From positions 6,559-70,558 of the forward strand of contig JAZTXG010000012.1 of NCBI GenBank assembly GCA_045636365.1: a DNA stretch of 64,000 nt, read 5' to 3'. Below, piece after piece: positions 1-28,340 of the stretch (position 1 is its first letter; every line of letters begins with the position of its first letter). Under the pieces are notes generated by a model. That model had not been told where the DNA came from. It saw only the letters and a list, made by a program, of their open reading frames with translations, and made no database searches. Source of the stretch: Eubacteriales bacterium (GTDB lineage Bacteria > Bacillota > Clostridia > Oscillospirales > QAKW01). The position numbers and the translations under genes were made by a program.

Positions 1-3000
1 TCAAGATCTCGCTAAAGGCAAAATCGAATTCCGCAATACCTCCATCGAGCACCTTAAAGACCAGAACGATTGCATCGAACTCACTGTTTGCCGCAATGTT
101 GGCTGCATTGCTCCAAGCGGCGGTGAAGGTACCGTCTTCTTCATTTACTGTTTGATTTTTGTTCGCGCCGAAGGCGTCGGTCAGAGTGATGGACTCCAGC
201 TTCAACAAGTTCTTATTATAAGAACCGTTGATGGTCATACCGCTCCACGCATTCAGATAATCCTTGACCGAAACGGTCACAGTGACGGTATCGCCAATCT
301 TCGCATCGGTCTTATCAGCAGTAGCAATCAAATGGGGCTGCGCCTTGACATTGACAACAACCGTTTCGCTGCGCTCCTCATAATCCCAGACAGAAACCAT
401 CGGCTCTTCGTCGAAGGCGATTGCCTGATCGATCTCTGCATAGAAGGAAATTTCACCTTCGACCTTCGGGCTATAATAGAGATTCATTAAGGTGAGGGCC
501 GTCTCTGTTGAGATGTAGTCTGTGGACACCAAAATGAAATGAACGTATCCTTCGTCCTCATTCAGGAAAACCACTCCGGTCACATCGTCCCTATCGCTCT
601 GCCACTCATCGATATCCTCTTGGTCGATGGTAACCTCGCTCTTATCATAGTACAACTTCACCGAAAGCGCTTGCACGCGATTGTTGAGGTTGTTGACAGT
701 GAGTGTCAGGGCCTCTTTCCTATTCTTGATCGCAGCATCCGCAGTGCCGATCGACAGGAACATCGGATCCATATTTTCATATTGGTTTGCGATCGTGATG
801 ATTTGATCCTCTGCCTTGGGAGCGTAGGTTTGGGTATCGACTACGGTAAAGCCGCCGTTCGAATCGGGGGTCTTAACACTGTCTGTTACAAACCCTGCAC
901 CGAATTTGGCTTCGCCGTCTTGGTATGCTTTGAAGGGGATGGAAGCAAGCAAGATCTGCTCGCGGTCATCCTGAATGTTCTCAAGGGAGATCCAGGTAAA
1001 GACAATCTTGCCGTCTCCGGAGCGGAGCAATACCTGAGCGTCCTCTCCGCCCAGCGGATTGCAGACGATATCGCTCTCTTTGATGCGGATCCGCTCTTTA
1101 TCAAATTCCAAAACGACCGGAACGGTGCACCATTCGCTGCTATATTCATTCAGATAAAGATGGAGAACACTGTCGTCGCCTTCATCCATCGCGTTGCCCT
1201 TTTCGAGGACCATGGTCAGATGAGGGAATCTTATTTTTTTAGCGTCAACGATGAGCGCCTCGGCATCCGCCACATACTCATAGGGGTCCACATCGACATT
1301 CGCGTTGCCGTCGAAGGTCTTGACCTCGGTCAACGCTGCATCGAACTGCACATCGTCTTTAAATCCGTTTGTCTTGAAGGTGATGCTCAGAAGGGTGTTG
1401 TCCTTTTCGGCATCGATATTCGCGGCGCCTGCGGGGAAGACCAAAGAGATCTTACCGTCGACCGAAGTATCTACCGTCGGGGTAATTCCGCCAAAGGCCT
1501 TGGGAACAACCTCCTCGATGGTAAATACGCTTGCATCGTAGCTCAGCTCTGCGCTGAAGGAAGACCACAGATCGCTGTAGTCCTTCAGTTTCAGCTCCAC
1601 AGTGTACTCTTCACCCTCTTGAGCTTTGCTTTCGCCGACAATCTCCAAGAAGGTAGGAGCAAACAAAACAACCGGCGCGGACACAGGCGCTTCAGAGTAA
1701 GAACCTTCCGGCGCATACATTCCGCCATCGGTGGCAGGATCTTCCACAATGATACCGTTCTCGGGGAACGCGAAGGAAACGTTGGGATCGCCTTCATCAA
1801 GAACCTCAAAGACGAGTGTCATCGCTTCAAAGTTTCTACCCAAAGCAACAGCCTCATCGTTCATCCAGGCAGCCTGGATCGTACCAGGCTTGGTTTCGTC
1901 TGCCTCGAAGTACGCGAAGCCGTCGACCGAAGAAGTTGCTTCGATGAACTTCAGCTTCGTTTGATCGTAGTTTGCGAAGATGGACATTCCCAGCCAATTG
2001 TCTTGATATTCCGAGACATTGACGGTGTATGTAATTTGCTCGCCGACCTTGACGCGATCCTTAGAAACCGTTGCTCCCAAATGAGCTTTGGAGTTATCGA
2101 TTTCCAAAATAACCGTATCGCTCACTTCAGTCGCATCGTACCAACTCTCGGGAGCGTACTCTCCGTTGGCATCCAGAATTCCGTCGGGAACAAAGGAGAA
2201 GTTGAAACTTGCTTCGCCTTCCGCCAAAACGTCGAAGACGATTACCAATGCCTCAAAATTCGGATTTTCGGTCACGATCGCATCAGCATGTGCCCAGCAG
2301 ACCTTGATCTCGCCGTTTTCGTTTTTGATCTCCGGCTCGATGACCTCGTCCTGGAAATTTTTAGGAGTGATGGTCTTCACCGCGAGCTTGGCGGGATCAT
2401 AAGTTCCTTGAATGGTCATCGCGGACCAAAGATTTGCATAATCCTTAACGTTTACACGAACGGTAACTGTCTTGCCGACATAAGCGCTGTCTTCATCCAC
2501 TTTGACTTCCAAAGAGGTTGTGACATCGTTATAAAGCAACTCTACCGTATCGGATACCTTTGCATCGGCGGCATAGGTCTCGGTGGGGACCTTATCGCCG
2601 TTTTCGTCCAGAACTCCGTCGGGGATAAAGGAGAATTCAAATTTCTCTGTAGTGTTTTCGCCGGACAAGACCTTAAAGGTCAGTTCCATTGCGGTAAACG
2701 TATCGTCTGCCATAACAACGGTATCGTCGTTGAGCCAGTTCACCGCTATTTTACCGTTTTCATCTGCAATGACCGGCTCTCCGGCAATTCCGCCATCGCT
2801 GAAAGCGGCAAATTTGCTTTCTTCTTCAATCAGTTCAAATTTTTTGGCGTCATAAGTACCCATGATGGTCATGACCGCCCAATTATCTTTGTAGTCCACT
2901 ACGTCGACCTTGACGGTGATGGTCTCGCCGAGCTTGGCGGAGTCTTCCACTACATCGACGTTCAGCATCGTTCCCTGCACAGAAGGAGCGATCGCGATGG

Positions 3001-4399
3001 TCGCTGTTTTTTCTGCGCTGTCAAAATTGGAAACGAACTCGCCGTTGGCATCTGCAATACCGTCGGGAACAAAGGAGAAGGAAAGGTTGGCATCGCCTTC
3101 TTCCTTCACCTTGAAGGTCAGGGTCAGCGCGGAGAACTCCGGCTCCATATCGACTGCGTCGACATTAATCCAGGTCACACCCAGAACGCCGTCGATGCTA
3201 TCTTCAATCACCGCTTCGGTGCCGGAGATGGTATCTTTAAAGTCGATCGGCTCGACCTTTTGCAAGTCTAATTTATCTTTATCGTAGGATCCCTTGATGG
3301 TCATGGTCGACCAGGCATCTGCATAGTCCTTGACATTGACGATGACGGTAATTTCGCCGCCGACTGTCGCGGTAGAAGGAGCAACCACTTCCAGCCCCAC
3401 AAGGGTGGTGGACTCGCTGATGACGATCTCTTTTTCTACAGGCTCTTTGGAAAAACCGGTGGTAATTTGATCCGTTTCGTTTTCGCCGAAGATGCCGTCC
3501 TCTATGAAGGAGAAGGAGAGGTTGGCATCGCCCAGCGCTTTGACATTAAAGGTCAGAGTTAAGGCTTTGAATTCTGCATCTACGTCATCGACAATATTCT
3601 CATTGACCCAGACCGCCGAGATGGTTCCGTTTTCGACCTTAAAGATGGAGTCTTCCATGATTTCGCTGTTCTTAAACGTACCCTTGACGGACCGTTCTTC
3701 GTCCAGCTCCAATACATCCTTGTTGTAAGAACCGCGGATGGAGAGGGTCGACCAATTCTTGGCATAATCCTTGACCCAGACTTCGACGGTAATTTCATCG
3801 CCGACCACCGCAGTAGACGGAACAACCACGTCCAGATAAGTGGGAGTGGCCGTATCGATCGTGATGGTTTCGGTCGCCGGCTCTACACTGTATTTCGCTG
3901 TATCCAGCGGAGCAGAACCGCCTTCGGCCGCGACCAACATTTCGCTTTCCACAAAGTTGAAAGAGATCTCCGCCTCGCCCAACGCAGCATCCGCCTTGAC
4001 GGTCAGAGGAACAACCATTAAGGTCGCACCCTCTTCCGGAGCCACATCCGAAGTGGCAACCCAACCCGCAAGGATCTTGCCGCCCGAAATATCTGCGTCC
4101 TTGACCGTCAGCTCGGTATCGCCGACGTTAAAATCATATGTCTCCGGTTCGCCATCGGGCGCGAAGAGGTCGGTGCTGTATGTACCTGCAACCGCCATCC
4201 CGCTGAGAGCGACCGTATTATGAATCGTGACAACAGCGTTGACCGCATCCCCGGGCGCGACAGAAGTCAGCGGATTGCCTTCGCCATCCACCAATTCCAC
4301 CTTCAGTTCCATCGGGTCAGAAAGCGCCGAGGAAAAGACGGACGCCATAGAAAGCAGCATAACGATTGTCACAATTGTTGCTCCTATACGTTTGAACAT
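1..4399 (-). CDS. Secreted scaffoldin-like protein with a signal peptide and about ten tandem cohesin-like modules. The 3-prime end is cut by the window edge, so it is at least 1466 aa.
   Basis: Absent from the supplied ORF track because it runs off the window. The reverse complement of 4380-4415 reads GGAGGAtctctATGTTCAAACGT. Hand translation gives MFKRIGATIVTIVMLLSMASVFSSA (signal peptide). This is followed by repeated units of about 150 aa such as VVVPSTAVVGDEITVEVWVKDYAKNWSTLSIRGSYNKDVLEL...LTLTFNVKALGDANLSFSF. I checked the frame as open at 4399-2900, 2460-2390 and 190-119. The plus-strand ORFs here (for example 539..3271) look like antisense shadows. Confidence 0.8.
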   Translation of the reverse strand, partial: MFKRIGATIVTIVMLLSMASVFSSALSDPMELKVELVDGEGNPLTSVAPGDAVNAVVTIHNTVALSGMAVAGTYSTDLFAPDGEPETYDFNVGDTELTVKDADISGGKILAGWVATSDVAPEEGATLMVVPLTVKADAALGEAEISFNFVESEMLVAAEGGSAPLDTAKYSVEPATETITIDTATPTYLDVVVPSTAVVGDEITVEVWVKDYAKNWSTLSIRGSYNKDVLELDEERSVKGTFKNSEIMEDSIFKVENGTISAVWVNENIVDDVDAEFKALTLTFNVKALGDANLSFSFIEDGIFGENETDQITTGFSKEPVEKEIVISESTTLVGLEVVAPSTATVGGEITVIVNVKDYADAWSTMTIKGSYDKDKLDLQKVEPIDFKDTISGTEAVIEDSIDGVLGVTWINVDAVDMEPEFSALTLTFKVKEEGDANLSFSFVPDGIADANGEFVSNFDSAEKTATIAIAPSVQGTMLNVDVVEDSAKLGETITVKVDVVDYKDNWAVMTIMGTYDAKKFELIEEESKFAAFSDGGIAGEPVIADENGKIAVNWLNDDTVVMADDTFTAMELTFKVLSGENTTEKFEFSFIPDGVLDENGDKVPTETYAADAKVSDTVELLYNDVTTSLEVKVDEDSAYVGKTVTVRVNVKDYANLWSAMTIQGTYDPAKLAVKTITPKNFQDEVIEPEIKNENGEIKVCWAHADAIVTENPNFEALVIVFDVLAEGEASFNFSFVPDGILDANGEYAPESWYDATEVSDTVILEIDNSKAHLGATVSKDRVKVGEQITYTVNVSEYQDNWLGMSIFANYDQTKLKFIEATSSVDGFAYFEADETKPGTIQAAWMNDEAVALGRNFEAMTLVFEVLDEGDPNVSFAFPENGIIVEDPATDGGMYAPEGSYSEAPVSAPVVLFAPTFLEIVGESKAQEGEEYTVELKLKDYSDLWSSFSAELSYDASVFTIEEVVPKAFGGITPTVDTSVDGKISLVFPAGAANIDAEKDNTLLSITFKTNGFKDDVQFDAALTEVKTFDGNANVDVDPYEYVADAEALIVDAKKIRFPHLTMVLEKGNAMDEGDDSVLHLYLNEYSSEWCTVPVVLEFDKERIRIKESDIVCNPLGGEDAQVLLRSGDGKIVFTWISLENIQDDREQILLASIPFKAYQDGEAKFGAGFVTDSVKTPDSNGGFTVVDTQTYAPKAEDQIITIANQYENMDPMFLSIGTADAAIKNRKEALTLTVNNLNNRVQALSVKLYYDKSEVTIDQEDIDEWQSDRDDVTGVVFLNEDEGYVHFILVSTDYISTETALTLMNLYYSPKVEGEISFYAEIDQAIAFDEEPMVSVWDYEERSETVVVNVKAQPHLIATADKTDAKIGDTVTVTVSVKDYLNAWSGMTINGSYNKNLLKLESITLTDAFGANKNQTVNEEDGTFTAAWSNAANIAANSEFDAIVLVFKVLDGGIAEFDFAFSEIL

Positions 4400-4488
4400 A
4401 GAGATCCTCCTTCAAATACGCACTTATAAAATAACCAAAAAAGGGTATAAATACCCCTAACGGTACGTATCCATTATTAGTTATTAAT

Positions 4489-4552
4489 ATTATAACAGAG
4501 CCGTTGTCAAATTGACATTACCTTATGTGTCTTTTTTAACACACTTTGCGTA
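4489..4552 (-). promoter_or_regulatory. Putative promoter of the scaffoldin-like gene: extended -10 (TGtTATAAT), a weak -35-position hexamer GTCAAT, and a conserved 36-nt upstream element (copy A).
   Basis: On the minus strand, TATAAT is at 4494-4489, preceded by TGt. A 16-nt spacer follows, then a hexamer at 4516-4511. The element at 4517-4552 (plus strand ATTACCTTATGTGTCTTTTTTAACACACTTTGCGTA) recurs with the same spacing at 11405-11440 and 52646-52681. Confidence 0.45.
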
Positions 4553-4620
4553 ATTTTAAAATTTATTTTGCCGCGCATAAATCGCCCCGCTTTGCCCCTT
4601 TCGCCCCCCATTTTGCAGCT

Positions 4621-4766
4621 ATATCATCACCGCAAGGTGTATATCATCACGCGCCAGCGTGTATGAAATCAACCGAAGGTTGAATGTAACCACCGTAGGT
4701 GTATGTAATCACCGCAAGGTGTATGTAACCACCGTAGGTGTATGCCATTTGCCCTGCACGGGCAAA
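4621..4766. repeat. Tandem array of seven mini-hairpins of about 20 nt each (array A).
   Basis: The units are atcaCACCgcaaGGTGtat, atcaCACGCgccaGCGTGtat, aaaTCAACCgaaGGTTGAat, gtaacCACCgtaGGTGtat, gtaatCACCgcaaGGTGtat, gtaacCACCgtaGGTGtat and TTTGCCCtgcacGGGCAAA. The AT-rich flanks are conserved. The stems vary but remain complementary. Confidence 0.7.
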
Positions 4767-4799
4767 AAAAGTGCGTCAGGAGTTCCTGACGCACTTTTT
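4766..4799 (-). terminator. Rho-independent (bidirectional-looking) terminator downstream of the 4801-5640 gene.
   Basis: AAAAAGTGCGTCAGGagttCCTGACGCACTTTTT: a perfect 10-bp GC-rich stem flanked by an A-run and a T-run, immediately after the TAA stop at 4801. Confidence 0.75.
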
Positions 4800-4800
4800 A

Positions 4801-5640
4801 TTATTCTTCTTTGGATTTTTTGCGCAGCAGCAATGCGATGGCAAAGGCGCTGGCGCTGGCAACCATCAAGGAGATCCAGAGGATCAGGTCAAAATGGTCG
4901 CCGGTATCGGCGTTATCGGAATCGGGCTTGGTTTCGGGCTTTTGCTCCGGCTTGGGTTCCGGCTCCGGCTCTGTCTCGCCCTCTCCGCCGGGCTGGCCCG
5001 GTTGCTCGGGTTCCGGTTCGGGATCGGGGGTGGGCTCGGGATCGGGGGTGGGGTCGGGATCAGGCTCGGGTCCGGGGGCAGGCTCTCCCTGCTTTTTTGC
5101 CAAAGCAAAATAGCATTTGCTGCCGCCCGCCTTAAAGATCAGTTCTCCGTCTTTGATTTCGGAGGGAATCAAGGATTTTTGACTATCGGTAGTCAGGCGG
5201 TAGACCTCTAAATCCTCGGAGGAGACCTTGATGCGAATCTCGTCCCCTTCCTCTAATTCGATGCGCTGACCGGTGGTCTTATCGCGATAATAGACCTCAA
5301 AGGGCATGGCATCTTGGGTATCCAAGCCCTCGATGCACTCTTTAAACCAATCCAATGCTTCTTTATGATCGGGTTCAAAAAACCGCACCACCAGCTCCAG
5401 CTCCCCATTGGGCTCTGCGGGAGTGACAGCTAAAGCGCCCTCTTCTACCTCAATCTTATACAAATCGTCTTGCAGAGGGGCAGTATGCTGATTGGGTTCT
5501 TCCGCAGGAACATAGGTACCCTGCACTTGGATGGGAACCTCGCCCGGCAGTTGGGTAATGGTCGTCGAATTATCCGCTTGGGCGACGATGCCCAAAGCAA
5601 GCAGCATACATATTAAAATTGCGCCGATCCTTCGCTTCAT
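4801..5640 (-). CDS. Secreted protein with a Pro/Glu/Asp-rich linker and a C-terminal tail resembling a cell-wall sorting signal.
   Basis: ORF track 4801..5646. GGAGG abuts the first ATG, so the start is more likely the MKRR ATG at 5640. Features: signal peptide [22 protein letters not shown]; linker [28 protein letters not shown]...[11 protein letters not shown]; tail NADTGD, a hydrophobic stretch [21 protein letters not shown], then RKKSKEE. Confidence 0.8.
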
Positions 5641-5670
5641 GCTCATCCTCCAACTAAATTATTGTCGCTA

Positions 5671-6192
5671 TTACTTATTCTTTACCGCGGGCTTCAAGGA
5701 GACCGAGCCGCTGCTCAAATAGGTTTCCGGCTCATAGCCCATCACCTTAAAGGCCAGCGGTTCATCGTCCGCTACCGCGCGGGAAAATTCAATGGTCTGC
5801 AGATATTCGCCGGGCTTAATTAAGCCGGTCTCGGCGATGATTTCACCCTGCGCATCCAATACACGCAATTTCAGCCAGCTTTCGTTTTTGGGAACGTTAT
5901 AGAACCAGATATCCGCTTGGTTTTGCTCATTGATCAAAACACCGCCGCAAATGTATACGGTATAGGGCAACCCCTCTTGATGGATTTTCGACCATAACAG
6001 CCCTTTTAATTCATCGGTTTCTTCCAATTTTCCCGCCACCGCCGCTTCATCAAAGGCGGGGGGGACAAATTGGGGTTGCGCTCCGGGCTTAAAATGAATC
6101 AACGCCGCAACCATCGCGCAAACCGAGACGATACAAACCGCCCCGATGACGATCAAAGCAATTTTCAGTTCTTTTCTTGAGATTCTTCGCAC
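5671..6192 (-). CDS. Single-pass (N-terminal anchor) membrane protein with an extracytoplasmic domain; paralogue of 8243..8794.
   Basis: A 173-aa ORF with a GTG start and a weak RBS. The TM segment is IALIVIGAVCIVSVCAMVAALI. The C-terminal region ADIWFYNVPKNESWLKLRVLDAQGEIIAETGLIKPGEYLQTIEF aligns with GMVYFSFTNPYESNQDMVLQVFVKDKLIAQSKLLPPGNALSQLPL of the 8243..8794 product. Confidence 0.7.
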   Translation of the reverse strand: MRRISRKELKIALIVIGAVCIVSVCAMVAALIHFKPGAQPQFVPPAFDEAAVAGKLEETDELKGLLWSKIHQEGLPYTVYICGGVLINEQNQADIWFYNVPKNESWLKLRVLDAQGEIIAETGLIKPGEYLQTIEFSRAVADDEPLAFKVMGYEPETYLSSGSVSLKPAVKNK

Positions 6193-6285
6193 GTTTTTTG
6201 ATACCTGTTCTTTCTTTTTCCCTTGGTTTCTTTCGTCAAAAACGGCTGCAGGCGGAAATTCGCCGGCAGCCGCCTAAAAATTCAT

Positions 6286-7347
6286 TTATGAAATGGTGAC
6301 AGTAAAGATACCCAGAATGCCAGCCTCTTCTTCAGTAATTCTGCCGTCAACAGTAACCGTACCGGAAATAGCACCTTTGGTGCCATCGGGATTTTCCACA
6401 TTAGCCTCATTCACAGTAGCTTTATTAACGGTAACATCTTCTACAGCTGCCTTCAATGCGGTCTCAGCACCGCCTTCAGTGTCTTTATAGGAAAGGGAAG
6501 CCTTAACATCTTGGCTGGAATGATTCTCAATATTAACGGTAAGAGTAGCTTCTTTGACAGACCATGCGCCACTCTCAGAAACATCCCACTTATGTGTTTT
6601 GGTGTTCCACTCGTTAGTATCGGCATCTATAAAGGTAAATACCGCCAAGTCATTCCAAGATAAACCAACCTTATAAGCGTGGGAATCACGAGATTCATCA
6701 ATATACTCGCTCCCCACATCGATTTTTACTTCATTGCCGGGTGCTTTATTGGTAGTAATAGTCGCTTTATTGGAAGCAGGTTCTTCGGGATCTTGAGGTT
6801 GGTCGGGGTCTTCTTCCGGCTGGACTTCGATCGGGGCGGACTCCACCTCCGCGGAACTAAACGCACTGCCATCTGTATTTACAATGGGTTCCTCTGAACC
6901 AAGTTCCGCCTGACCGTCCGGGGTGAAACCGGCAGAGATGATTGCGTTTGTCGTTTCGGCAAGTGCGGTAAATTGCAGTTGAACCAAATAATCGGCGGCG
7001 GGAACACCATCGGAGCTGATCCAGTTGATCAGAATGGTACCCTCACCGTTTTTTACATCGGCAACGACCGTTTGAATATCCTCCAAGGCAGCATTGCCGA
7101 GAACGCCGGTCTCTTTATCAAAGGACAGATAGGCGGGGTCATAGGTGACTTTTACCGTCATCGCAGACCAGGTGTTCGCGGTATAATTCAATGCATTTAC
7201 GGTGGCTGTCACCGTTTCGCCTTCCTTTACCGCAGTTTGATCTACGGTGATCGCCAAAGAGGGAGCGGTTCCTTCCGCGCTCACAAAGGCGGCCAGCCCT
7301 GCCAACAGCAGGGCGCAGATCATCAAAATGCTGAATACTCGCTTCAT
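6286..7347 (-). CDS. Secreted protein: signal peptide, one cohesin-like module, an acidic Pro-rich linker and the shared C-terminal domain (CTD).
   Basis: ORF track 6286..7362 has a TTG start that overlaps the RBS. GGAGGatatatctATG places the start at 7347 (MKRVFSILMICALLLAGLAAFVSA). The cohesin-like stretch is ITVDQTAVKEGETVTATVNALNYTANTWSAMTVKVTYDPAYLSF. The CTD at 6289-6678 is highly similar to that of 7585..8151. Confidence 0.85.
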   Translation of the reverse strand: MKRVFSILMICALLLAGLAAFVSAEGTAPSLAITVDQTAVKEGETVTATVNALNYTANTWSAMTVKVTYDPAYLSFDKETGVLGNAALEDIQTVVADVKNGEGTILINWISSDGVPAADYLVQLQFTALAETTNAIISAGFTPDGQAELGSEEPIVNTDGSAFSSAEVESAPIEVQPEEDPDQPQDPEEPASNKATITTNKAPGNEVKIDVGSEYIDESRDSHAYKVGLSWNDLAVFTFIDADTNEWNTKTHKWDVSESGAWSVKEATLTVNIENHSSQDVKASLSYKDTEGGAETALKAAVEDVTVNKATVNEANVENPDGTKGAISGTVTVDGRITEEEAGILGIFTVTIS

Positions 7348-7584
7348 AGATATATCCTCCAAAAACTATATTTGGGGTTTATTGCTCAAATATCGCCGGT
7401 CTTTTTTTGCAGGCCGGAGATAGTTCAGCCATAAACCAAAACAAATGTTTTTCGGGGCGCGGCGGCTGCAAGGATGCTCGCCGCGCCGATTTTTCATGAA
7501 AAACGAATTCGCTTAATGTAAGCTTGGCAGCATGCCAAGGGCGGATTGCCGCCCTTGGCAAACTGCTTTAGATTAAAGGATTAA

Positions 7585-8151
7585 TTAGCCCTCAACAGGA
7601 GCAGTATACTCGGCAACGGTAACAGTGAAGGTACCCATAACGCCAGCTTCTGCTTCAGTGATTCTGCCGCCAACAGTAACGGTACCGGAGATAGAACCTT
7701 CAGTGCCTTTGGGAGCTTCTTCTTCAGTCTCATTCACAGCAGCTTTATCAACAATAACATCTTCTACAGCAGCCTTCAATGCGGTTTCAGCGCCACCTGC
7801 AGCATCTTCATAGCCAAGGCTAACTTTAACATCTACGCAAGAATGGTTCTCGATATTAACGGTAAGAGCAACTTCTTCAGCAGACCAAGAACCACCCTCA
7901 GTAACATCCCACTTGTGTGTTTCGACATTCCACTCGTTTTCGTTGGCATCAGTAAAGGTGATTGCAGCCAAGGCGTCCCAAGTCAGAACAACTTTGTAGT
8001 TAGGAACATCAGTTTGCTCATCGGAGTATGCACCGGTAACTTCGATCTTAGTATTGGCATCGGGAAGAGCGGTGATATCAGCAGCAAAAGCAACAGCGGA
8101 CATAGAGGCGATCATCGCGATCGCGAGAACGATAGATAATACCTTTTTCAT
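7585..8151 (-). CDS. Small secreted protein consisting essentially of a signal peptide plus the shared CTD.
   Basis: A 188-aa ORF. RBS AAGGAG lies 9 nt before the ATG. Signal peptide MKKVLSIVLAIAMIASMSAVAFA. The CTD is YKVVLTWDALAAITFTDANENEWNVETHKWDV...LTVNIENHS...GGAETALKAAVEDV...GTFTVTV. Confidence 0.85.
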   Translation of the reverse strand: MKKVLSIVLAIAMIASMSAVAFAADITALPDANTKIEVTGAYSDEQTDVPNYKVVLTWDALAAITFTDANENEWNVETHKWDVTEGGSWSAEEVALTVNIENHSCVDVKVSLGYEDAAGGAETALKAAVEDVIVDKAAVNETEEEAPKGTEGSISGTVTVGGRITEAEAGVMGTFTVTVAEYTAPVEG

Positions 8152-8242
8152 TTTTTAAGTCTCCTTAAAATAATTTTTTATATTTGACCGCTTAACGCTC
8201 CTTGCAGCGCAAAAGCGGCTAAATACCTTAAATAAGTTTGAT

Positions 8243-8794
8243 TTATTCCTGCACCTTAACGATGAGAGGAATATCGGTTTGAAGGATGGCTTTTTCGCCG
8301 GTTTCATAATAATAGGCGGCGGTATATTTGCCATCATAGCCGCCGGCGGAAAGCTTCACACCATCCCGCAAGGGAAGCTGGGAAAGGGCATTTCCCGGGG
8401 GCAATAATTTGGATTGGGCAATCAACTTATCCTTAACAAACACCTGCAGGACCATATCCTGATTGGATTCATAGGGGTTGGTGAAGGAAAAATAGACCAT
8501 CCCATCGGAAAGATCCACACGGACCTCTTTTTGATATTGAATACTCACCGAGCCGCCGCCCTGCTCCTGCTCCAATTTCTCGTTTTCCTTATCGGAATCG
8601 GGGGTGGGGGTAGCGTTCGGTTCGATCTCCTGCGGGGCATAGTCCGGCGCAAGAGTGGGGGTGGTATCGCGGAAGAAGATGGACCAGATGGTGACACTGC
8701 AGCTGGTAATCAACAGCAACAGCAGCAAGATCAGCGCAGCAAGCATCCAGCGTTTCTTTTTGCGATTATTTTCTTGATTGACGTGCTTACTCAA
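8243..8794 (-). CDS. Single-pass (N-terminal anchor) membrane protein; paralogue of 5671..6192.
   Basis: A 183-aa ORF. RBS AGGAGG lies 6 nt before the TTG start. A basic N-terminus is followed by the TM segment WMLAALILLLLLLITS. The extracytoplasmic domain aligns with the 5671..6192 product. The gene lies 21 nt after the upstream stop, so it is probably co-transcribed. Confidence 0.75.
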   Translation of the reverse strand: MSKHVNQENNRKKKRWMLAALILLLLLLITSCSVTIWSIFFRDTTPTLAPDYAPQEIEPNATPTPDSDKENEKLEQEQGGGSVSIQYQKEVRVDLSDGMVYFSFTNPYESNQDMVLQVFVKDKLIAQSKLLPPGNALSQLPLRDGVKLSAGGYDGKYTAAYYYETGEKAILQTDIPLIVKVQE

Positions 8795-8815: not shown

Positions 8816-11296
8816 TTAAACTGCTTTATCAATAGTCACTGTAATGGTGCCGAGCACCGTCTTCGTATCGGTCGAAAGTTCTGCGCCGGCGGGCAGGTCG
8901 CCCAACTCAAATTGAACCGTTGCCGAATTATATGCATCGCCTTCGGCCTTATCGACTGTCAACGACGATACTGCAGTTCCATCCTGCTCGAATGTATGGG
9001 TCAGCCCGACAAGGTCGGTCTTCTCCGGGTTTACAGCAAATTCAAACGTCGCTGTAATATCAACCTTACCTTGGTTGGTGACGGTGATCCAATTTTCGGC
9101 TTCGCTGTCTGCATTTAAGCAGGTCCAACCGCGGCCATCCCAAATATGGTTTTGGGGATCCCAGGTGCCGAAAGAATAGGTAAATGCCATTGCGCCCCAT
9201 TCGATTTTCACCGAAATTTCCGACGCGGCCGTTTCGATCTTGACTTCGACTTCGGCGGGAGTATCTGTATAGTTATCGCCATCCAGCTCTGCGCCGTTTT
9301 GATAGTTTCCGCCTTCAAGAAACGCTACAGAAACGAACCGGCGAAGTTGCTCTTCGGTCAGGTCTTCCTGCCTTACTTTCAGCGTAAATACCATAATGTC
9401 TTGATTCGGCAAGTACATTGGCAAAGGATCGCCGTTGAACCAGCAGGCAAGCAACGTTCCTTTGGCGTGTTCGGTGATGAACTCGGAATGAGCGCCTTCA
9501 CCATCGTCGTTAAACGCGTTCTTATCTTCGACAGAAACAAACTCGAATACGTCGGAATCAAACAACGCCTTGAGGGTCATTACTTCCCAAGCGCTTGTAA
9601 AATCCTTGATCGAGACAGCAAAACGAACTTCTTTGCCCTGCTCAATAGCGCCGATTTCTTCCCCTTCGGGAACATCCACGCCGTCGATCTGATCGATCCG
9701 GATGGAGAGTTCGGGCTTGCCACGAACGGTTATGGGCTTCACGGCAGACGTTTCGATATAACCGGCAACATCATCGCCGGAAAGGTTACCCCCCGCCAGG
9801 AAAGAGGCGGTGATGGGGAATTCGGATCCGTCTACCGTATAATCACTTTTAATTGTTATGGGGATCTCAAGGATCGTTCCGCTTGAGGCGCCCAGCTTGA
9901 GATCATCGCCTTCTTCAGAGAAAATGGTGATACCAAGTTTGTTTCCGCTAATCACCGGCACAACGGCGACATCACTGTCGCCTAATGCAACGATATTATC
10001 CGTATCTACCTCAAAAACGTTTTTATTGAGGTTGACAAGGATACTCATCATCGACCACGGATCAACATAATCAGTGATGTTCACTTGAAGAGTGAATTTC
10101 TCACCGCGAGAAAAGGCGGGTTTATCTTCCTCAACCACTACAGATAAGTAGGGGAACACCTTCTGCGTTACCTTGACTTCAGCTGTACCCTCTTCGTGCT
10201 CTTCAACATAATCGTCGGCGGAGGTCAGCAGTTCTTCTTCGCCTGTCGCGGCATCGTATTTAAAGTTGCCTTCTTGCTGGAAAGAGGTCCCGATTTCGAG
10301 CGCGCTTCCCGCGCCTTGGGCTTCCAAGGTCAGCTCCAGAATATCTGCATCGGATGCACCGTCTTTCAGAATCATATTGCCCAAAGAGGGGCTGAAGAAG
10401 CAGATTGAAAGCGGTTTTGCAGCATCTTCGGTCTCTGCCACCAGCATGGAGACGGGATCCGAAGTTTCGGAGTCAACAAGATTTCCTAAGTCTTCCGAAC
10501 TTATATACTTGAATTTATTGCCATTGTATTGAAGGTCCAGAGTCATCATCATCCAGCCTTCGTAGAAATTGTTCAGGCAAACGATTGCTTTGACTTTTTC
10601 CCCTTGCTCAATTTCGGTAACCGGATTTCCGCTCTCATCCACCAACCGCATGGTCAGATGCGGCTGATACACACGGACCTCTCTTTCAAAATCGGAGGTG
10701 GCGGCATAAGCTTCGGTAGCGATGAACTCCGGTTCGTCACCAACATACCCCGCGACACTATCGTCTACAAAGGTAAAAGAGAGTTTCGCGTTATCGGTCT
10801 CCGCAATTGCTTTGAATTTCAAATCCATCAATGCGGCAGTTCCCTCTACGGCAGGGAGGTTGGTGCCTTGATTGCTCATCATAAAAACCATCAAGGAACC
10901 GCTTGCTTTATTAGACTCATCAATCGAGAGGGTGAACTCCTCGCCGATCTTCGTTTCAAAACCCTTATATTCCAGCTCCGCCGGATCATAGGTCAATTCG
11001 GCAACAAAGATCGCCCAATCGCCCCTATAATTTTCCAGCGAGACAGAAATATCAAACTCTTCGTCCAGCGAAAGATGCTCTTTCTCTGTACTCATCACCA
11101 CGGAAGTCGGCTCAGAGCCGCCTTCGGTGTTTAACAATGCGGGCTGCTCGGAAGCGTAATTATTCAGTTGAACTGTTGCATCCAACGCATCGCTCTCAAG
11201 TACGCTTTCGTCGGCAGCAGAGACGACAAAGACCGAGCATACCATGGAGCAGAGCATTGCCAGCGCAACAGCGATTGACCATACACGCTTATTCAC
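8816..11296 (-). CDS. Secreted protein with four cohesin-like modules and a divergent copy of the shared CTD.
   Basis: ORF track 8816..11365. GGAGGtatttcGTG makes GTG at 11296 the likely start (VNKRVWSIAVALAMLCSMVCSVFVVSA signal peptide). The module signatures are ISVSLENYRGDWAIFVAELTYDPAELEY, AIVCLNNFYEGWMMMTLDLQYNGNKFKY, LQVNITDYVDPWSMMSILVNLNKNVFEV and FAVSIKDFTSAWEVMTLKALFDSDVFEF. The CTD at 8819-9217 reads ISVKIEWGAMAFTYSFGTWDPQNHIWDGRGW...ITVTNQG...GTITVTI. Confidence 0.85.
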   Translation of the reverse strand: MNKRVWSIAVALAMLCSMVCSVFVVSAADESVLESDALDATVQLNNYASEQPALLNTEGGSEPTSVVMSTEKEHLSLDEEFDISVSLENYRGDWAIFVAELTYDPAELEYKGFETKIGEEFTLSIDESNKASGSLMVFMMSNQGTNLPAVEGTAALMDLKFKAIAETDNAKLSFTFVDDSVAGYVGDEPEFIATEAYAATSDFEREVRVYQPHLTMRLVDESGNPVTEIEQGEKVKAIVCLNNFYEGWMMMTLDLQYNGNKFKYISSEDLGNLVDSETSDPVSMLVAETEDAAKPLSICFFSPSLGNMILKDGASDADILELTLEAQGAGSALEIGTSFQQEGNFKYDAATGEEELLTSADDYVEEHEEGTAEVKVTQKVFPYLSVVVEEDKPAFSRGEKFTLQVNITDYVDPWSMMSILVNLNKNVFEVDTDNIVALGDSDVAVVPVISGNKLGITIFSEEGDDLKLGASSGTILEIPITIKSDYTVDGSEFPITASFLAGGNLSGDDVAGYIETSAVKPITVRGKPELSIRIDQIDGVDVPEGEEIGAIEQGKEVRFAVSIKDFTSAWEVMTLKALFDSDVFEFVSVEDKNAFNDDGEGAHSEFITEHAKGTLLACWFNGDPLPMYLPNQDIMVFTLKVRQEDLTEEQLRRFVSVAFLEGGNYQNGAELDGDNYTDTPAEVEVKIETAASEISVKIEWGAMAFTYSFGTWDPQNHIWDGRGWTCLNADSEAENWITVTNQGKVDITATFEFAVNPEKTDLVGLTHTFEQDGTAVSSLTVDKAEGDAYNSATVQFELGDLPAGAELSTDTKTVLGTITVTIDKAV

Positions 11297-11376: not shown

Positions 11377-11440
11377 ATTATAGCAGAGCGAAAAACAAAT
11401 TTACATTGCTTTATGTTGCTTTTTTTAAACGATTTGCGTC
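11377..11440 (-). promoter_or_regulatory. Putative promoter of the 8816-11296 / 8243-8794 unit, with the conserved upstream element (copy B).
   Basis: On the minus strand, TGcTATAAT has its -10 at 11382-11377. A 16-nt spacer follows, then the hexamer GTAAAT at 11404-11399. The element at 11405-11440 is ATTGCTTTATGTTGCTTTTTTTAAACGATTTGCGTC. Confidence 0.45.
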
Positions 11441-11511
11441 TTTTTTTAAAAAATTAGTGCATTTTATACATTTTTTTGCATCATTCTTTATTTCAGTCGT
11501 CGAAATAGACT

Positions 11512-11553
11512 ATGAAAAAAGAAGGCTTGCTTTACCCCATAGCAAAGCAAGCC
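11512..11553 (-). terminator. Rho-independent terminator downstream of murA.
   Basis: Stem GGCTTGCTTT / AAAGCAAGCC with a 10-nt loop. On the minus strand it is followed by ttcTTTTTTc. Confidence 0.65.
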
Positions 11554-11584
11554 CTATATATTAAATATGAAAGGTTTTGAAAAA

Positions 11585-18557: not shown

Positions 18558-20432
18558 ATGACAAAGAAATTTTCGTCTTGGTTTTCTGCTCCCATTCTGC
18601 AGAAAACAATCTTAGTGGTTTTATTGGATATTTTCTCCATCGCCGCCTCCTTTTTTATGGGGCTTTGGCTGCGGTTTGATTTCCGCTTCAATTCCATCAA
18701 TAAGCAATTCCTCGACGGCTACCTTTCCTCCATCCTCGTCTGGTGCGCTGTCGCGGTGGTGGTCTTTGCCTTTTTCCGGCTATACAACAGCATTTGGCTG
18801 TTTGTCAGCACCGATGAGTTTTTCCGCATATTGGGGGCCTACGGTGTTTTAGCCGCTGTGGGGCTGATTTATATCAACATTGTCGACCTGCAAATGCCCC
18901 GCTCTTATTTTGTTCTGGGGTTTGTGTTCAGCTTCTTCTGCACCATCGGGATCCGCTTTTCCTATCGATTGTTGCGGCTGATCGCCAAGCAATTTACCCA
19001 TTTCGGCGCAATGAACAAGAGCAAAAATATTATGCTGGTGGGCGCCGGTGAAGCAGGGCGGGTCTTAGCCAAGGAGTTTGCAGCAAGTTCCTATCTTCAT
19101 GGGCATATTGTCTGCGCCATCGACGATAATCCGGTCAAGCTCAATAAGCGGCTTTGCGGGATTCCCATTGTCGGCGGCAGGGATGAGATTCCTGCGGCGG
19201 TGGAAAAATATAAGATCGAAAAGATCATCTATGCCATTCCGTCCGGTTCTCCCGCCACCCGCAAAGAGATTTTGGATATCTGCACCAAAACCGGATGCGC
19301 TGTCCAAGCGCTGCCCGGTGTTTATCAGCTCATCAATGAAGAAGTCAGTGTCAGCCAGCTGCGGGATGTGGATGTGCAGGACCTGCTGGGCAGAGAGCCC
19401 ATCCGCGTTAATAACGATGAAATTTTAAGTTATGTCTCCGATAAAGTGGTTATGGTCACCGGCGGCGGTGGTTCCATCGGCAGCGAGCTTTGCCGCCAGA
19501 TCGCCCGCGCCAAGCCCAAAAAACTGATCATCTTTGATATCTACGAAAACAATGCTTACGATATTCAGTTGGAATTGCTTCGCAAATACCCCGACCTACA
19601 TCTGGAAGCGCTGATCGGTTCGGTGCGCAATACCGCGCGGTTGGATGATATTTTGGCCACCCATCGGCCCGAGTTGGTCTTCCACGCGGCCGCCCATAAG
19701 CATGTTCCTCTGATGGAGGACAGCCCCAACGAAGCCATCAAAAACAATGTCTTCGGCACCTTCAAAATGGCAAAAGCCGCCGCCAAATACGGCGTCAAGC
19801 GGTTTGTCCTGATCTCCACCGATAAGGCGGTCAACCCCACCAACATTATGGGCGCCTCCAAGCGGCTTTGCGAGATGGTGGTGCAGATGATGAACCGCAA
19901 GACCGAGACCGAATTTGTCGCGGTTCGGTTCGGCAACGTTTTGGGGAGCAACGGCAGCGTGATTCCGCTCTTTAAAAAGCAAATCGAAAAGGGCGGGCCG
20001 GTCACTGTTACCCACCCCGATATTATCCGCTATTTTATGACCATTCCCGAGGCGGTCAGCCTGGTTCTGCAGGCGGGCTACTATGCCAAGGGCGGTGAAA
20101 TCTTTGTTCTGGATATGGGCAAGCCGGTCAAGATCGATGCCATGGCGCGCAATTTGATCCGCCTTTCCGGTTTTGAGCCGGATGTGGATATCAAGGTCGA
20201 ATATACCGGCCTGCGCCCCGGCGAAAAGCTCTTTGAAGAGCTGCTGATGGAAGAAGAAGGCTTGCAGGAAACCAATAACAAGCTGATTCATATCGGCAAG
20301 CCCATCGAAATGGACGATGAGCTTTTTGCAAAACAGCTGGCTCTGCTGGAAAAAGCCTGCACCGGCGAATCCGCCGATATTAAAGAAATTGTGGCAAAAA
20401 TTGTCCCCACCTATAAACGAAACGAAGAATAA
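18558..20432 (+). CDS. capD: Membrane-bound polysaccharide biosynthesis protein, CapD/WbpM/PglF family (UDP-GlcNAc 4,6-dehydratase type).
   Basis: A 624-aa ORF with four N-terminal TM segments. Motifs: MVTGGGGSIGSELCRQI, HAAAHKHVPLME, STDKAVNPTNIMGASKR, and FGNVLGSNGSVIPLF. Confidence 0.85.
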   Translation: MTKKFSSWFSAPILQKTILVVLLDIFSIAASFFMGLWLRFDFRFNSINKQFLDGYLSSILVWCAVAVVVFAFFRLYNSIWLFVSTDEFFRILGAYGVLAAVGLIYINIVDLQMPRSYFVLGFVFSFFCTIGIRFSYRLLRLIAKQFTHFGAMNKSKNIMLVGAGEAGRVLAKEFAASSYLHGHIVCAIDDNPVKLNKRLCGIPIVGGRDEIPAAVEKYKIEKIIYAIPSGSPATRKEILDICTKTGCAVQALPGVYQLINEEVSVSQLRDVDVQDLLGREPIRVNNDEILSYVSDKVVMVTGGGGSIGSELCRQIARAKPKKLIIFDIYENNAYDIQLELLRKYPDLHLEALIGSVRNTARLDDILATHRPELVFHAAAHKHVPLMEDSPNEAIKNNVFGTFKMAKAAAKYGVKRFVLISTDKAVNPTNIMGASKRLCEMVVQMMNRKTETEFVAVRFGNVLGSNGSVIPLFKKQIEKGGPVTVTHPDIIRYFMTIPEAVSLVLQAGYYAKGGEIFVLDMGKPVKIDAMARNLIRLSGFEPDVDIKVEYTGLRPGEKLFEELLMEEEGLQETNNKLIHIGKPIEMDDELFAKQLALLEKACTGESADIKEIVAKIVPTYKRNEE

Positions 20433-20436
20433 ACCA

Positions 20437-20466
20437 AAAGCCGAGATGCAAAAGCATCTCGGCTTT
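20437..20466. terminator. Bidirectional terminator between the convergent capD-like and 2-epimerase genes.
   Basis: AAAGCCGAGATGCaaaaGCATCTCGGCTTT. Confidence 0.75.
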
Positions 20467-20470
20467 ATTA

Positions 20471-21577
20471 TTATATCTCGGTCTTGCCAAATTCTAAAAT
20501 GTCGGCAATGCGGCGGGATGCCTTTCCGTCGCCATAAGGGTTGCTGGCTTCCGCCATCGCCGCATAAGCGGCGGGGTCTTCCAGCAGCAGCTTAAAGTTG
20601 CTGTAGATCACCTCTTCGTCGGTACCCACCAATTTCAGGGTCCCCGCGGCGATGCCTTCGGGGCGCTCGGTGGTATCCCGCATCACCAAAACCGGCTTAC
20701 CTAAAGAGGGTGCTTCCTCCTGAATCCCGCCCGAATCGGTGAGGATCATATAGCTGCGCGCCATAATATTATGGCAATCCAACACCTCCAGCGGCTCAAT
20801 AATATGGATGCGGTCGCATCCGCCCAGCTCCTCCTCCGCTGCTGCGCGGACAATCGGGTTCATATGAATGGGGTAGAGCGCTTTGACATCGGGATGCTCC
20901 TCCAACACTCTGCGGATGGCGCGGAACATCTGGTGCATCGGCTCGCCCAGATTTTCGCGGCGATGGGCGGTAATCAAAATCAGGCGGCTGTCTTTGGCCC
21001 AATCCAGCTCGGGATGGGTGAAATCCTCCCGCACCGTGGTCTGCAACGCGTCGATGGCGGTGTTGCCTGTGACATAAATGTTCTCGGCGGGGCGCCCTTC
21101 ATTGAGCAGGTTTTCCTTCGCCTTCGGGGTGGGCGCAAAATTGTAGCGAGAGACGATGGAGACCGCCTGCCGATTGAATTCCTCGGGGAAGGGGCTATAA
21201 ATATCATAGGTCCGCAAGCCCGCTTCCACATGCCCGACCGGAATCTGCAGATAGAAGCACGCCAGCGCGGTGACAAAGGTGGTAGAGGTGTCGCCGTGGA
21301 CCAAAACCACATCGGGAGCGACTTCTTCCAGCACACCCTTGATCCGCTCTAAAATATTGGTAGTAATATCAAACAGCGTCTGCTTTGCCTTCATGATCGA
21401 AAGGTCATAATCGGGCACCACATCAAACGCTTCCAACACCTGCGTCAGCATCTCGCGGTGCTGACCGGTGACGCAAACGATGGTTTCCAGCCCCTTGCGC
21501 TTTTTCAGCTCATTGACCAAAGGGCACATTTTAATTGCTTCGGGACGCGTCCCGAAGACAAGCATGACTTTTTTCAT
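20471..21577 (-). CDS. wecB: UDP-N-acetylglucosamine 2-epimerase (non-hydrolysing), WecB/MnaA/CapP type.
   Basis: ORF track 20471..21610. The likely start is MKKVMLVFGTRPEAIKM at 21577. Motifs: VHGDTSTT, HVEAGLRT, and DSGGIQEEAPSLGKPVLVMR. Confidence 0.85.
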   Translation of the reverse strand: MKKVMLVFGTRPEAIKMCPLVNELKKRKGLETIVCVTGQHREMLTQVLEAFDVVPDYDLSIMKAKQTLFDITTNILERIKGVLEEVAPDVVLVHGDTSTTFVTALACFYLQIPVGHVEAGLRTYDIYSPFPEEFNRQAVSIVSRYNFAPTPKAKENLLNEGRPAENIYVTGNTAIDALQTTVREDFTHPELDWAKDSRLILITAHRRENLGEPMHQMFRAIRRVLEEHPDVKALYPIHMNPIVRAAAEEELGGCDRIHIIEPLEVLDCHNIMARSYMILTDSGGIQEEAPSLGKPVLVMRDTTERPEGIAAGTLKLVGTDEEVIYSNFKLLLEDPAAYAAMAEASNPYGDGKASRRIADILEFGKTEI

Positions 21578-21794
21578 ATCCTTATTTCTCCGTCGTCGAA
21601 ATGAAATCATATATAGGCATTATAGCAATTTTTGTAATTAAAGTCAAATGATATTCATAAAAACTGTATACTATATTATATAGATTATAATTATATAAAT
21701 AAATGTTGCAATAAATGTTGACTTATGATACAATTTACTCATAATGTATCATTGCGTCTTTTTTGACCTTATTATCGACATGGAGGGGATTTCT

Positions 21795-22412
21795 ATGTAT
21801 CAAAAATTTTTCAAGCGCATCATCGATCTGATCGTTTCCGGCCTTGGAATCTTAATCCTTTCGCCGATCCTTTTAATATTAGTGATCGTCATCAAATTGG
21901 ATTCCCCCGGCCCGATTTTATTCAAGCAAAAGCGCGTGGGGTTGCACAAAAAGCATTTCAACATTTTGAAATTCCGCACCATGCGGATCGATACCCCCAA
22001 GGATACCCCCACCCATCTGCTGGAAAACCCCGAGCAATGGATCACCAAAGTGGGCGGCTTCCTGCGTAAGACCAGCCTGGATGAACTGCCCCAGATCTTC
22101 AATATTTTTGCAGGGCAGATGTCCATCATCGGTCCCCGCCCTGCCCTTTGGAACCAATACGACCTGATTGAAGAGCGGGACCAATACGGCGCCAACGATG
22201 TGCTTCCCGGTCTGACCGGCTGGGCGCAGATCAACGGGCGGGATGAGCTGGAAATCCCGGTCAAAGCCAAGCTGGACGGCGAATATGTCCAAAAAATGAG
22301 CCTTTGGTTCGATATCAAGTGCTTCTTCGGCACCATCGCTTCGGTTTTGAAGAGCGACGGTGTGGTGGAAGGCGGAACCGGCCAAATGGAAAAGGAGAAT
22401 TCTAAGGAATGA
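21795..22412 (+). CDS. Small monotopic phosphoglycosyl transferase (bacterial sugar transferase, PglC/CapM type), the initiating enzyme.
   Basis: ORF track 21744..22412. GGAGGGgatttctATG places the start at 21795. Motifs: KRIIDLIVSGLGILILSPILL re-entrant helix, LFKQKRVG, KFRTM, DELPQ and GPRP. Confidence 0.85.
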   Translation: MYQKFFKRIIDLIVSGLGILILSPILLILVIVIKLDSPGPILFKQKRVGLHKKHFNILKFRTMRIDTPKDTPTHLLENPEQWITKVGGFLRKTSLDELPQIFNIFAGQMSIIGPRPALWNQYDLIEERDQYGANDVLPGLTGWAQINGRDELEIPVKAKLDGEYVQKMSLWFDIKCFFGTIASVLKSDGVVEGGTGQMEKENSKE

Positions 22413-23287
22413 AGAAAATCCTGATTACCGGCGCCAATAGCTATATTGGTACATCCTTTGAAAACTATATGGCTCAATGGCCCGATCAATACCAAATCGA
22501 TACCGTTGATATGATCGACGGCAGCTGGCGGGAGAAAAGCTTTGCCGGCTACGATGCCATCTTCCATGTGGCAGGAATTGCTCATTCCGATACCGGCAAT
22601 GTTTCGGAAGAGCGCAAGGCGTTTTATTATAAAATCAATACCGACCTCACCATCGAGACCGCCCAAAAGGCAAAGGCAGAGGGTGTCGGTCAGTTTATCT
22701 TTATGAGCAGCGCCATCGTTTACGGCGATAGCGCGCCCATCGGCAAAGAAAAAATCATCACCGCCGAGACCCCCACCGCTCCCGCCAATTTCTATGGCGA
22801 CAGCAAGGTGCAGGCGGAAAACGGCATCCTTCCCTTAAACGATGCATCGTTTAAAGTGGTTGTCCTGCGGCCGCCGATGATCTATGGGCCCCAAAGCAAA
22901 GGCAATTATCCCATTCTTGCTAAATTGGCGCAAAAGCTACCCATCTTCCCCGCAGTGCAAAACCGGCGCTCGATGCTGTTTGTCGAAAATCTGGCCGAGT
23001 TCATCCGCCTGATGGTCGAGAACAACGAAAGCGGTATTTTCCATCCCCAAAACAATGAATATTCCAATACCGCGGAGCTGGTCAAGCTCATCGCTGCCGC
23101 CCATGGAAAAAAGATTTTGTTGATCAAAGGCTTCGGCTGGGCGTTGAAATTAATGAGCCGCTGCACCGGTCTGGTCAATAAAGCCTTCGGCAGTTTATCC
23201 TACGACTCTTCCATCAGCGCATATCAGCAAGACTATTGCGTCTGCTCGCTGGGAGAATCCATCCAAAAAACCGAGGAATGCAAATGA
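22409..23287 (+). CDS. NAD-dependent epimerase/dehydratase family protein (CapN-like).
   Basis: A 292-aa ORF. Motifs: ILITGANSYIG and YGDSK (the YxxxK motif). It overlaps the upstream gene by 4 nt. Confidence 0.75.
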   Translation: MKKILITGANSYIGTSFENYMAQWPDQYQIDTVDMIDGSWREKSFAGYDAIFHVAGIAHSDTGNVSEERKAFYYKINTDLTIETAQKAKAEGVGQFIFMSSAIVYGDSAPIGKEKIITAETPTAPANFYGDSKVQAENGILPLNDASFKVVVLRPPMIYGPQSKGNYPILAKLAQKLPIFPAVQNRRSMLFVENLAEFIRLMVENNESGIFHPQNNEYSNTAELVKLIAAAHGKKILLIKGFGWALKLMSRCTGLVNKAFGSLSYDSSISAYQQDYCVCSLGESIQKTEECK

Positions 23288-24468: not shown

Positions 24469-24477
24469 GGAGTCTTT

Positions 24478-25596: not shown

Positions 25597-25663
25597 CTGC
25601 AAAAACAAGCCATACAAAAAATATTTAGATCTTTATAAATCGCCTTGCTCAAGGAGAACTCTT

Positions 25664-27178: not shown

Positions 27179-27199
27179 ATATCATTTTGGAGTTTTGCT

Positions 27200-28318: not shown

Positions 28319-28340
28319 ACTTCTTTAAGGAGGGTTCCTT

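Follow-up and report, generated by a model that had tools for sequence, protein, structure and literature searches.

A conserved pair of phased direct repeats ahead of cohesin and dockerin genes in uncultured gut Clostridia, a candidate activator operator

The window, i.e. the whole 64-kb stretch of DNA that was analysed, harbors three cohesin/dockerin-type genes on the minus strand (Table 1). Pfam assignments and domain counts bore out the identities given in the initial annotation, with a scaffoldin-like gene (A), a gene with four cohesin modules (B) and a dockerin giant (C). Downstream of gene B, the operon spans 4801-8794 and encodes a 358-aa cohesin protein along with four small proteins, either secreted or membrane-located, in the order B, 183 aa, 188 aa, 358-aa cohesin protein, 173 aa and 281 aa, the small products all carrying a signal peptide or a membrane anchor. 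Since each promoter lies directly after the intrinsic terminator of the preceding gene, A, B and C constitute three independent transcription units. The signal peptides of the three genes (starts at 4402, 11296 and 52539) are alike, reading MFKRIGATIVTIVMLLSM..., VNKRVWSIAVALAMLCSM... and, for the C type, MITTRTR...AxAMLVSML, the last being complete in relatives. This likeness is suggestive of a joint duplication of promoter and signal peptide.

Elsewhere, the window holds housekeeping genes, Rnf genes and a cluster for polysaccharide synthesis. This large surface-polysaccharide cluster (18558-37916) separates the cohesin genes from the dockerin gene and lacks a copy of the element described below. 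A cell-wall polymer decorated with phosphocholine is hinted at by its LicD, choline-kinase/nucleotidyltransferase fusion and sodium:solute symporter. When all of the ~50 genes of the window were screened with Pfam, a DNA-binding domain was detected only in LexA, the sole transcription factor found, in agreement with the earlier statement that a matching regulator gene is missing from the window; the Cheo-box consensus of LexA does not seem to be matched by the repeats. The small B-operon proteins were rejected as autoregulators, as all of them possess signal peptides or membrane anchors and none has family matches.

Table 1. Positions of genes, terminators and promoter features of the three cohesin/dockerin transcription units in the window.
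Feature	Position	Strand	Remarks
Gene A, scaffoldin, at least 10 cohesin modules	2-4402	-	Start at 4402, runs past window end; orthologues also carry SLH
Gene B, 826 aa, 4 cohesin modules	8816-11296	-	First gene of conserved operon
Gene C, 1764-aa secreted protein, C-terminal dockerin	47245-52539	-	No further recognised domain
Intrinsic terminator, upstream 281-aa surface protein gene	4766-4799	-	Before promoter A
Intrinsic terminator, EPSP synthase gene	11522-11555	-	Upstream of promoter B
Intrinsic terminator, PEPCK gene	52852-52881	-	Upstream of promoter C
Promoter A, upstream module (-75 to -33)	4515-4557	-	A4 tract 4553-4557, distal repeat, A-rich linker 4532-4540 (GTTAAAAAA), proximal repeat, AATGT
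Promoter A, distal 12-bp repeat TACGCAAAGTGT (-70 to -59)	4541-4552	-	
Promoter A, proximal 12-bp repeat GACACATAAGGT (-49 to -38)	4520-4531	-	
Promoter A, extended -10 TGTTATAAT	4489-4497	-	TATAAT 4489-4494; weak -35-like ATGTCA 4513-4518, 18-nt spacer
Promoter B, upstream module (-75 to -33)	11403-11445	-	
Promoter B, distal repeat GACGCAAATCGT	11429-11440	-	
Promoter B, proximal repeat GCAACATAAAGC	11408-11419	-	
Promoter B, extended -10 TGCTATAAT	11377-11385	-	TATAAT 11377-11382; acceptable -35 hexamer not found
Promoter C, upstream module (-75 to -33)	52644-52686	-	
Promoter C, distal repeat TATGCAAATCGT	52670-52681	-	
Promoter C, proximal repeat GCAACATAAGGT	52649-52660	-	
Promoter C, core	52618-52645	-	TTGCAA 52640-52645, 16-nt spacer, TATAAT 52618-52623, without TG extension

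Upstream of the three genes, a 36-nt element recurs at 4517-4552, 11405-11440 and 52646-52681, on the minus strand and in gene orientation. The layout originally described, with element, spacing and TATAAT in succession, reads as claimed in A, B and C: a 36-nt conserved block is followed by 22 variable nt and then by TATAAT. A degenerate 35-mer derived from the three copies, with up to 3 mismatches allowed, matched the 64-kb window only at 4517-4551, 11405-11439 and 52646-52680 (three matches, versus none in 100 shuffles), and relaxation to 9 mismatches yielded no additional copy in the window. Similarly, a position weight matrix of -76 to -33, where promoter positions are numbered on the assumption that transcription starts 7 nt after TATAAT, scored 66-71 bits at the three promoters, compared to -24 for the runner-up site in the window and -13.7 for the best site over 30 shuffles. 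Copies of intermediate score were detected in the window by neither scan. In the window, the element heads each of the three cohesin/dockerin transcription units, and is absent from every other annotated gene.

Alignment with promoters of relatives (below) permitted dissection of the element. Two stretches, -75 to -33 and -18 to -7, have a high information content; the 36-nt element is present as annotated, but the conserved block is broader, spanning approximately -75 to -33. Judged from its sequence, this module is composed of two 12-bp direct repeats with the consensus RMMRCAWANNGT, at about -70 to -59 and -49 to -38, hence with a 21-bp period. The two repeats are linked by an A-tract, and an A-run precedes each of them (-75 to -72 for the distal and -55 to -50 for the proximal repeat). 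The initial annotation had proposed direct half sites spaced by roughly two helical turns with a T-tract between them, and direct repeats so spaced, with an A/T tract as linker, are indeed present; its ATGTTGC-like heptamers, 18-19 bp apart, are however better replaced by the 12-mers and their 21-bp period. Across 26 promoters, self-similarity peaks at offset 21, reaching 0.44 overall and 0.34 at G/C-containing positions, where other offsets mostly give 0.00-0.14, with a secondary peak of 0.20 at offset 18. The OmpR/PhoB-type arrangement that had been put forward found no support in this analysis: a 10-11-bp tandem repeat is not apparent at informative positions, with only 0.12 and 0.10 at offsets 10 and 11 versus 0.34 at offset 21 for the G/C-containing positions of the same 26 promoters, and what periodicity there is of this kind resides in the A-tracts.

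In promoters of the three canonical types, the distal repeat is a degenerate version that matches the proximal repeat at 5-8 of 12 positions, as exemplified by TACGCAAAGTGT versus GACACATAAGGT. Five G/C positions are invariant or nearly so, namely C-66, G-60, G-49, C-45 and G-39. Between the 8-bp CAWANNGT cores of the two repeats are 13 bp, and a minimal pattern of CAWWNNGT-N13-CAWWNNGY, followed 24-27 nt on by a TATAAT-like -10 (TAWAWT), has 29 matches in 270 kb of clade DNA and none in 382 kb of unrelated loci. The register is strikingly constant, with 25 nt separating TATAAT from the end of the proximal repeat in 28 of 29 promoters and 26 nt in the remaining one, of the L085 locus. We also considered a simple dyad (CRP- or TnrA-like, GTGT-N8-ACAC centred at -52.5), but inspection of the alignment demonstrated that it is perfect only in A types, without consistent covariation in B and C types. 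B-type promoters possess an extra conserved block further upstream (-110 to -76; TGCAAAAAAATGTATAAAATGCACTAATTTTTT, window 11441-11480, minus strand). At promoter B, a weaker third 21-nt unit is located at 11440-11460, 76% identical to 11419-11439, and may represent a third binding unit.

TATAAT is perfect in all 29 promoters. It is preceded by TGn at A (TGT) and B (TGC), as the initial annotation had noted for two of the three promoters, and in most relatives (TGT/TGC), the A and B types reading TnTG(C/T) before TATAAT; C and C-type promoters elsewhere are without TG. By sequence, the -10 fits a sigma-A (housekeeping, sigma-70-type) promoter of the extended -10 class, with its TATAAT and TGn. 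The -35 region, on the other hand, is not conserved across species, and neither are the 22 nt adjoining the -10. The -35 hexamers assigned earlier proved to be an arbitrary choice, as a promoter scanner returned ATGTCA (4/6 matches, 18-nt spacer) for A, nothing passing 4/6 for B, and TTGCAA or TTTGCA for C. The TG extension is found where the -35 is worst, and is missing where the -35 is better, as in the C types (TTGCAA, TTTCAA). In the A-type spacer there is also a palindrome, GTCAA-T-TTGAC (window 4506-4516), which takes in a perfect TTGACA at a distance of only 10 nt from TATAAT. It is kept in most scaffoldin promoters, while B and C types lack it, and it may serve as a second, scaffoldin-specific operator.

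Further features were noted in the transcribed and flanking regions. Tandem units of about 20 nt are located between upstream terminator and promoter (window 4620-4745 and ~52745-52830; L001 18600-18740; L005 9640-9790, where L numbers denote loci of relatives). Each unit is a mini-hairpin, in gene orientation for example CACC-UACG-GGUG, AACC-UUCG-GGUU or CACC-UUGC-GGUG; seven of them precede promoter A, and the arrays of relatives are found at the same place with different sequences. Rfam gave a sub-threshold match to Gut-1 on 4616-4692 (minus strand) upstream of promoter A, at 22.5 bits versus a cutoff of 50 (E=0.05), and at gathering thresholds returned a tRNA only; a structured RNA was accordingly rejected as an explanation. 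The scaffoldin 5'UTR (window 4403-4488, minus strand) is conserved across species as TATAAT-AnTAATAACTAATAATGGATACGTACC...GGGG..CCC-TTTTT...GCGCGTATTTGAAGGAGGA. It contains a terminator-like hairpin (4441-4458) followed by a T-run, and ATACG near +20 could pair with CGTAT directly 5' of the ribosome-binding site, a structure that may function as an attenuator or 5' stabiliser. Within the B operon, the intergenic region upstream of the 334-358-aa cohesin gene is likewise conserved and apparently structured (window ~7363-7584, minus strand; L053 4392-4632, L055 6021-6276, L057 5296-5549), with two GC-rich hairpins and a conserved stretch, GAACTATCTCCGG...CCGGCGATATTTGAGCAATAAACCCCAAAT. This region could be a processing or stabilising site, or alternatively an internal promoter or attenuator.

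The lineage comprises uncultured "Clostridia/Eubacteriales bacterium" from ruminant and other animal gut metagenomes. The module is kept in all promoters reached through protein similarity alone, in gut and rumen "Clostridia bacterium" metagenome-assembled genomes (MAGs) with 23-66% identical proteins. These encompass B-type orthologues (L001, L005, L053, L054, L055 and L057; 24-66% protein identity), A-type orthologues (L001, L055 and L057) and C-type orthologues (L079/L080 at 41% protein identity, and L085 at 23%, the latter with one extra base before the -10). A protein search with the dockerin alone gave no matches. Scanning one genome per species with a DNA pattern yielded 13 further copies in 7 MAG species, each before an A-, B- or C-type signal peptide, and its leftover matches were due to chance, without the rest of the motif. 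The upstream conservation check suggested in the initial annotation accordingly came out positive, at least 8 MAG species having retained the element in their orthologous promoters. At the L081 locus, variants with near-perfect repeats and the same register to TATAAT occur before a paralogous 1791-aa dockerin protein (ACAACATAGTGT-N9-GCAACATAAGGT) and before a secreted 457-aa Exo_endo_phos protein (GCAACATTGTGT-N9-ACAACATTGAGT). Such variant promoters preserve the 12-mer cores, and not A/T richness alone.

About half of the relatives' promoters were ascertained by a DNA pattern that forces some positions, and the key statistics are those of the protein-ascertained subset. In that set, the identity between paralogous promoter types is 0.83 for the proximal repeat, 0.76 for the linker, 0.64 for the distal repeat and 1.00 for the -10, against 0.35 for the spacer (-32 to -19), 0.35 upstream of -76 and 0.28 for the transcribed leader. 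Congruently, the flanks, the -32 to -19 spacer and the 5'UTR drift in relatives. Neutral descent from a duplicated promoter cannot explain this contrast between conserved module and drifted flanks. The earlier concern that the motif is a common intergenic repeat is contradicted by the fact that neither ~380 kb of unrelated control DNA nor the window's other transcription units contain it. A generic intergenic or mobile repeat (REP/MITE-like) was rejected with copies being present only at orthologous promoters, as was an inverton or invertible promoter, for which flanking inverted repeats were looked for and none found. A scan of JGI metagenomes with a relaxed pattern gave 21 matches, all by chance and with no true copy. 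The element is so far known from this clade only.

The claim of a dedicated surface regulon was sustained in part. The module is real, selected and tied to cohesin/dockerin genes; relatives, however, add a secreted Exo_endo_phos gene and skip at least two dockerin genes. The two repeat-less dockerin genes in relatives have ordinary promoters and encode a 1340-aa EEP-dockerin protein (L081, gene at 3618) and a small cohesin-dockerin protein of ~230-240 aa (L033, ORF 1249-1977), while in L081 the module is present before a secreted EEP protein without a detected dockerin. The regulon is thus not simply all cohesin/dockerin genes. As for the dockerin proteins themselves, those of the clade are giants of 1,700-2,700 aa without a recognisable catalytic or carbohydrate-binding domain (window 47245-52539; L081 1153-7640 and 10001-15376; L085 6001-14058), plus Exo_endo_phos (nuclease/phosphatase-like) enzymes. 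As no glycoside hydrolase was seen among them, the assembly may not be a cellulosome.

We then compared the module to known regulatory sites. Two direct repeats about two helical turns apart are also found in AraC/XylS-type sites (B. subtilis Btr at PfeuA, AraC at araI1-I2, XylS at Pm), of which araI and Pm have a repeat period of ~21 bp and span -35 to -70; we know of no family-wide DNA consensus for AraC sites. In the AraC/XylS type, as represented by Btr, the two DNA-binding domains of the dimer read imperfect direct repeats, with the proximal one abutting or overlapping a weak -35 and with strict positioning (PMC3333878). Here too, the proximal repeat (end at -38) is next to a weak -35 and at a fixed distance to the -10, but it adjoins rather than overlaps the -35 hexamer, and the linker is a conserved A-tract. 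LytTR sites (AgrA P2/P3, ComE, PlnC/D, VirR boxes) are direct repeats 12-13 bp apart (~21-bp period), directly upstream of the -35 of activator-dependent promoters (PMC5600425). They are resembled by the CAWANNGT cores, with their 13-bp separation upstream of the -35, and by an arrangement common to several dispersed promoters of a small regulon. Nevertheless, the best pair of matches to the LytTR consensus [TA][AC][CA]GTTN[AG][TG] scored 14.2 of 18, compared to 13.5 in shuffled sequence with a 95th percentile of 15, which is not above controls. Neither an AraC-family nor a LytTR gene is present in the 64-kb window. The architecture therefore resembles that of AraC/XylS or LytTR sites, and membership in either family cannot be claimed.

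Considering the selective conservation, the block is very probably a functional cis-regulatory element, maintained by selection, of a small surface-protein regulon. With the same module heading several independent transcription units, these would form one such regulon that is switched together. Moreover, phased repeats with an A-tract, a base-pair-exact register, a weak -35 and compensation between -35 and TG represent the classical signature of a polymerase-contacting tandem-dimer activator. From this we infer, with a probability of roughly 55%, that the module is the operator of a dedicated, tandemly bound transcription activator of the surface-protein regulon. Two copies of the activator's DNA-binding domain would sit head-to-tail on the two 12-bp direct repeats, with the 21-bp period placing both on one face of the helix and the conserved A-tract linker probably aiding DNA bending. 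The proximal protomer, adjoining the site of the missing or weak -35 hexamer, would then recruit or stabilise sigma-A RNA polymerase, which would otherwise be held mainly by the perfect, often TG-extended TATAAT. Precedents include Btr of the AraC family, an activator on imperfect direct repeats adjoining a weak -35 (PMC3333878), and the LytTR activator AgrA, with imperfect direct repeats separated by 12-13 bp (PMC5600425). In the window, the scaffoldin, the cohesin operon and the giant dockerin protein would be switched together, joined in relatives by the paralogous dockerin giant and the secreted EEP-family gene. Even in the absence of an activator, a promoter with a perfect, TG-extended TATAAT can be strong, and the site could therefore modulate instead of switch.

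The A-tracts near -42, -52, -64 and -73, with A6 at -55 to -50, are reminiscent of the UP elements and the phased A-tracts that strong promoters of Gram-positive bacteria carry, and would also fit a factor-independent UP-like or bent-DNA element. Such promoters would be constitutively strong, with the phased A-tracts binding the C-terminal domains of the RNA polymerase alpha subunit, and the similarity would reflect common descent and selection for strength. Scaffoldins are typically highly expressed, the conserved A-runs (-75 to -72, -65 to -63, -55 to -50 and -44 to -41) have a period of ~10.5 bp, a secondary self-similarity peak is seen at 10 bp, and the linker AAAAAAG(A/C)(A/C) resembles what we take to be an alpha-CTD subsite. 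However, base-specific G/C conservation as at the five near-invariant positions is unexpected in an UP element, and a pure UP-like element, as entertained in the initial annotation, leaves these positions unexplained. In addition, the 10-11-bp periodicity is lost at G/C-containing positions while the 21-bp direct repeat persists, and the variants conserve the 12-mer cores beyond mere A/T richness. We consequently hold this explanation to be improbable.

We judge it similarly improbable that the block is an operator for a repressor or other negative factor, which would keep the surface system off until a signal arrives, with the promoters being strong through their perfect extended -10. Indeed, TATAAT with TG could act without activation at A and B, and the palindrome of the A-type spacer could be a second operator. 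The block, however, is entirely upstream of -33, leaving the -10 and the start site, the usual targets of repressors, uncovered, and the distance to the -10, fixed to the base pair in all but one promoter, is typical of contact between activator and polymerase.

An alternative sigma factor recognition sequence deserves mention, as our understanding of how cohesin-dockerin systems are regulated stems mainly from Clostridium thermocellum and its relatives, with control via sigma-I/RsgI. There, cohesin/dockerin genes are subject to dedicated co-regulation by a shared promoter signature, C-N5-AAA ... CGWA (PMC4711584). The promoters analysed here likewise share a signature over cohesin/dockerin genes, but as an upstream candidate operator on housekeeping-type TATAAT promoters rather than as the -35/-10 of an alternative sigma factor. 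Sigma-I being a known cellulosome regulator (PMC4711584), its consensus (C-N5-AAA, N13-14, CGWA) was fitted to the promoters, but matched none of them in any register; the only conserved element at the -10 is the housekeeping TATAAT, and the block is too distant from it (25 nt from the repeat end, 22 nt from the element end) for a -35/-10 pair, which renders recognition of this type highly unlikely. Equally far-fetched is the notion that duplicated 5' regions, comprising promoter and signal peptide, are alike only through common descent or gene conversion, the 36-nt block being devoid of specific function, for despite similar signal peptides in the three genes (...A.MLLSM...) and related-looking early 5'UTR parts (TGG(A/T)T...GTA(T/C)C), the block is retained where proteins are 23-41% identical, with spacer and flanks at background identity.

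Returning to the operator of a tandemly bound activator, such a site on a sigma-A promoter is of a textbook kind, while the motif, the regulon and the lineage are new. A string search of the literature for the repeat sequences returned unrelated primers only, and the literature on cellulosome and amylosome regulation yielded sigma-I/RsgI and general transcription factor surveys, with no description of the motif found. To our knowledge, no shared cis-element has been described for most other cohesin-dockerin lineages, uncultured ones especially. It is conceivable, albeit doubtful, that the module is the operator of a novel master regulator, with a motif matching no characterised family, of a cohesin-dockerin surface system that is specific to this lineage of uncultured Clostridia from gut and rumen.

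The 43-bp module, with its testable repeat grammar, offers a direct handle on finding the regulator, and motif scanning with it can provide a regulon list for any MAG of the clade. It further represents a compact, probably inducible promoter part, and marks functional members of the surface system, giant dockerin proteins and EEP enzymes among them. If true, a novel master regulator would amount to a second, sigma-I-independent logic for cohesin-dockerin assemblies, in a system that is possibly no cellulosome at all.
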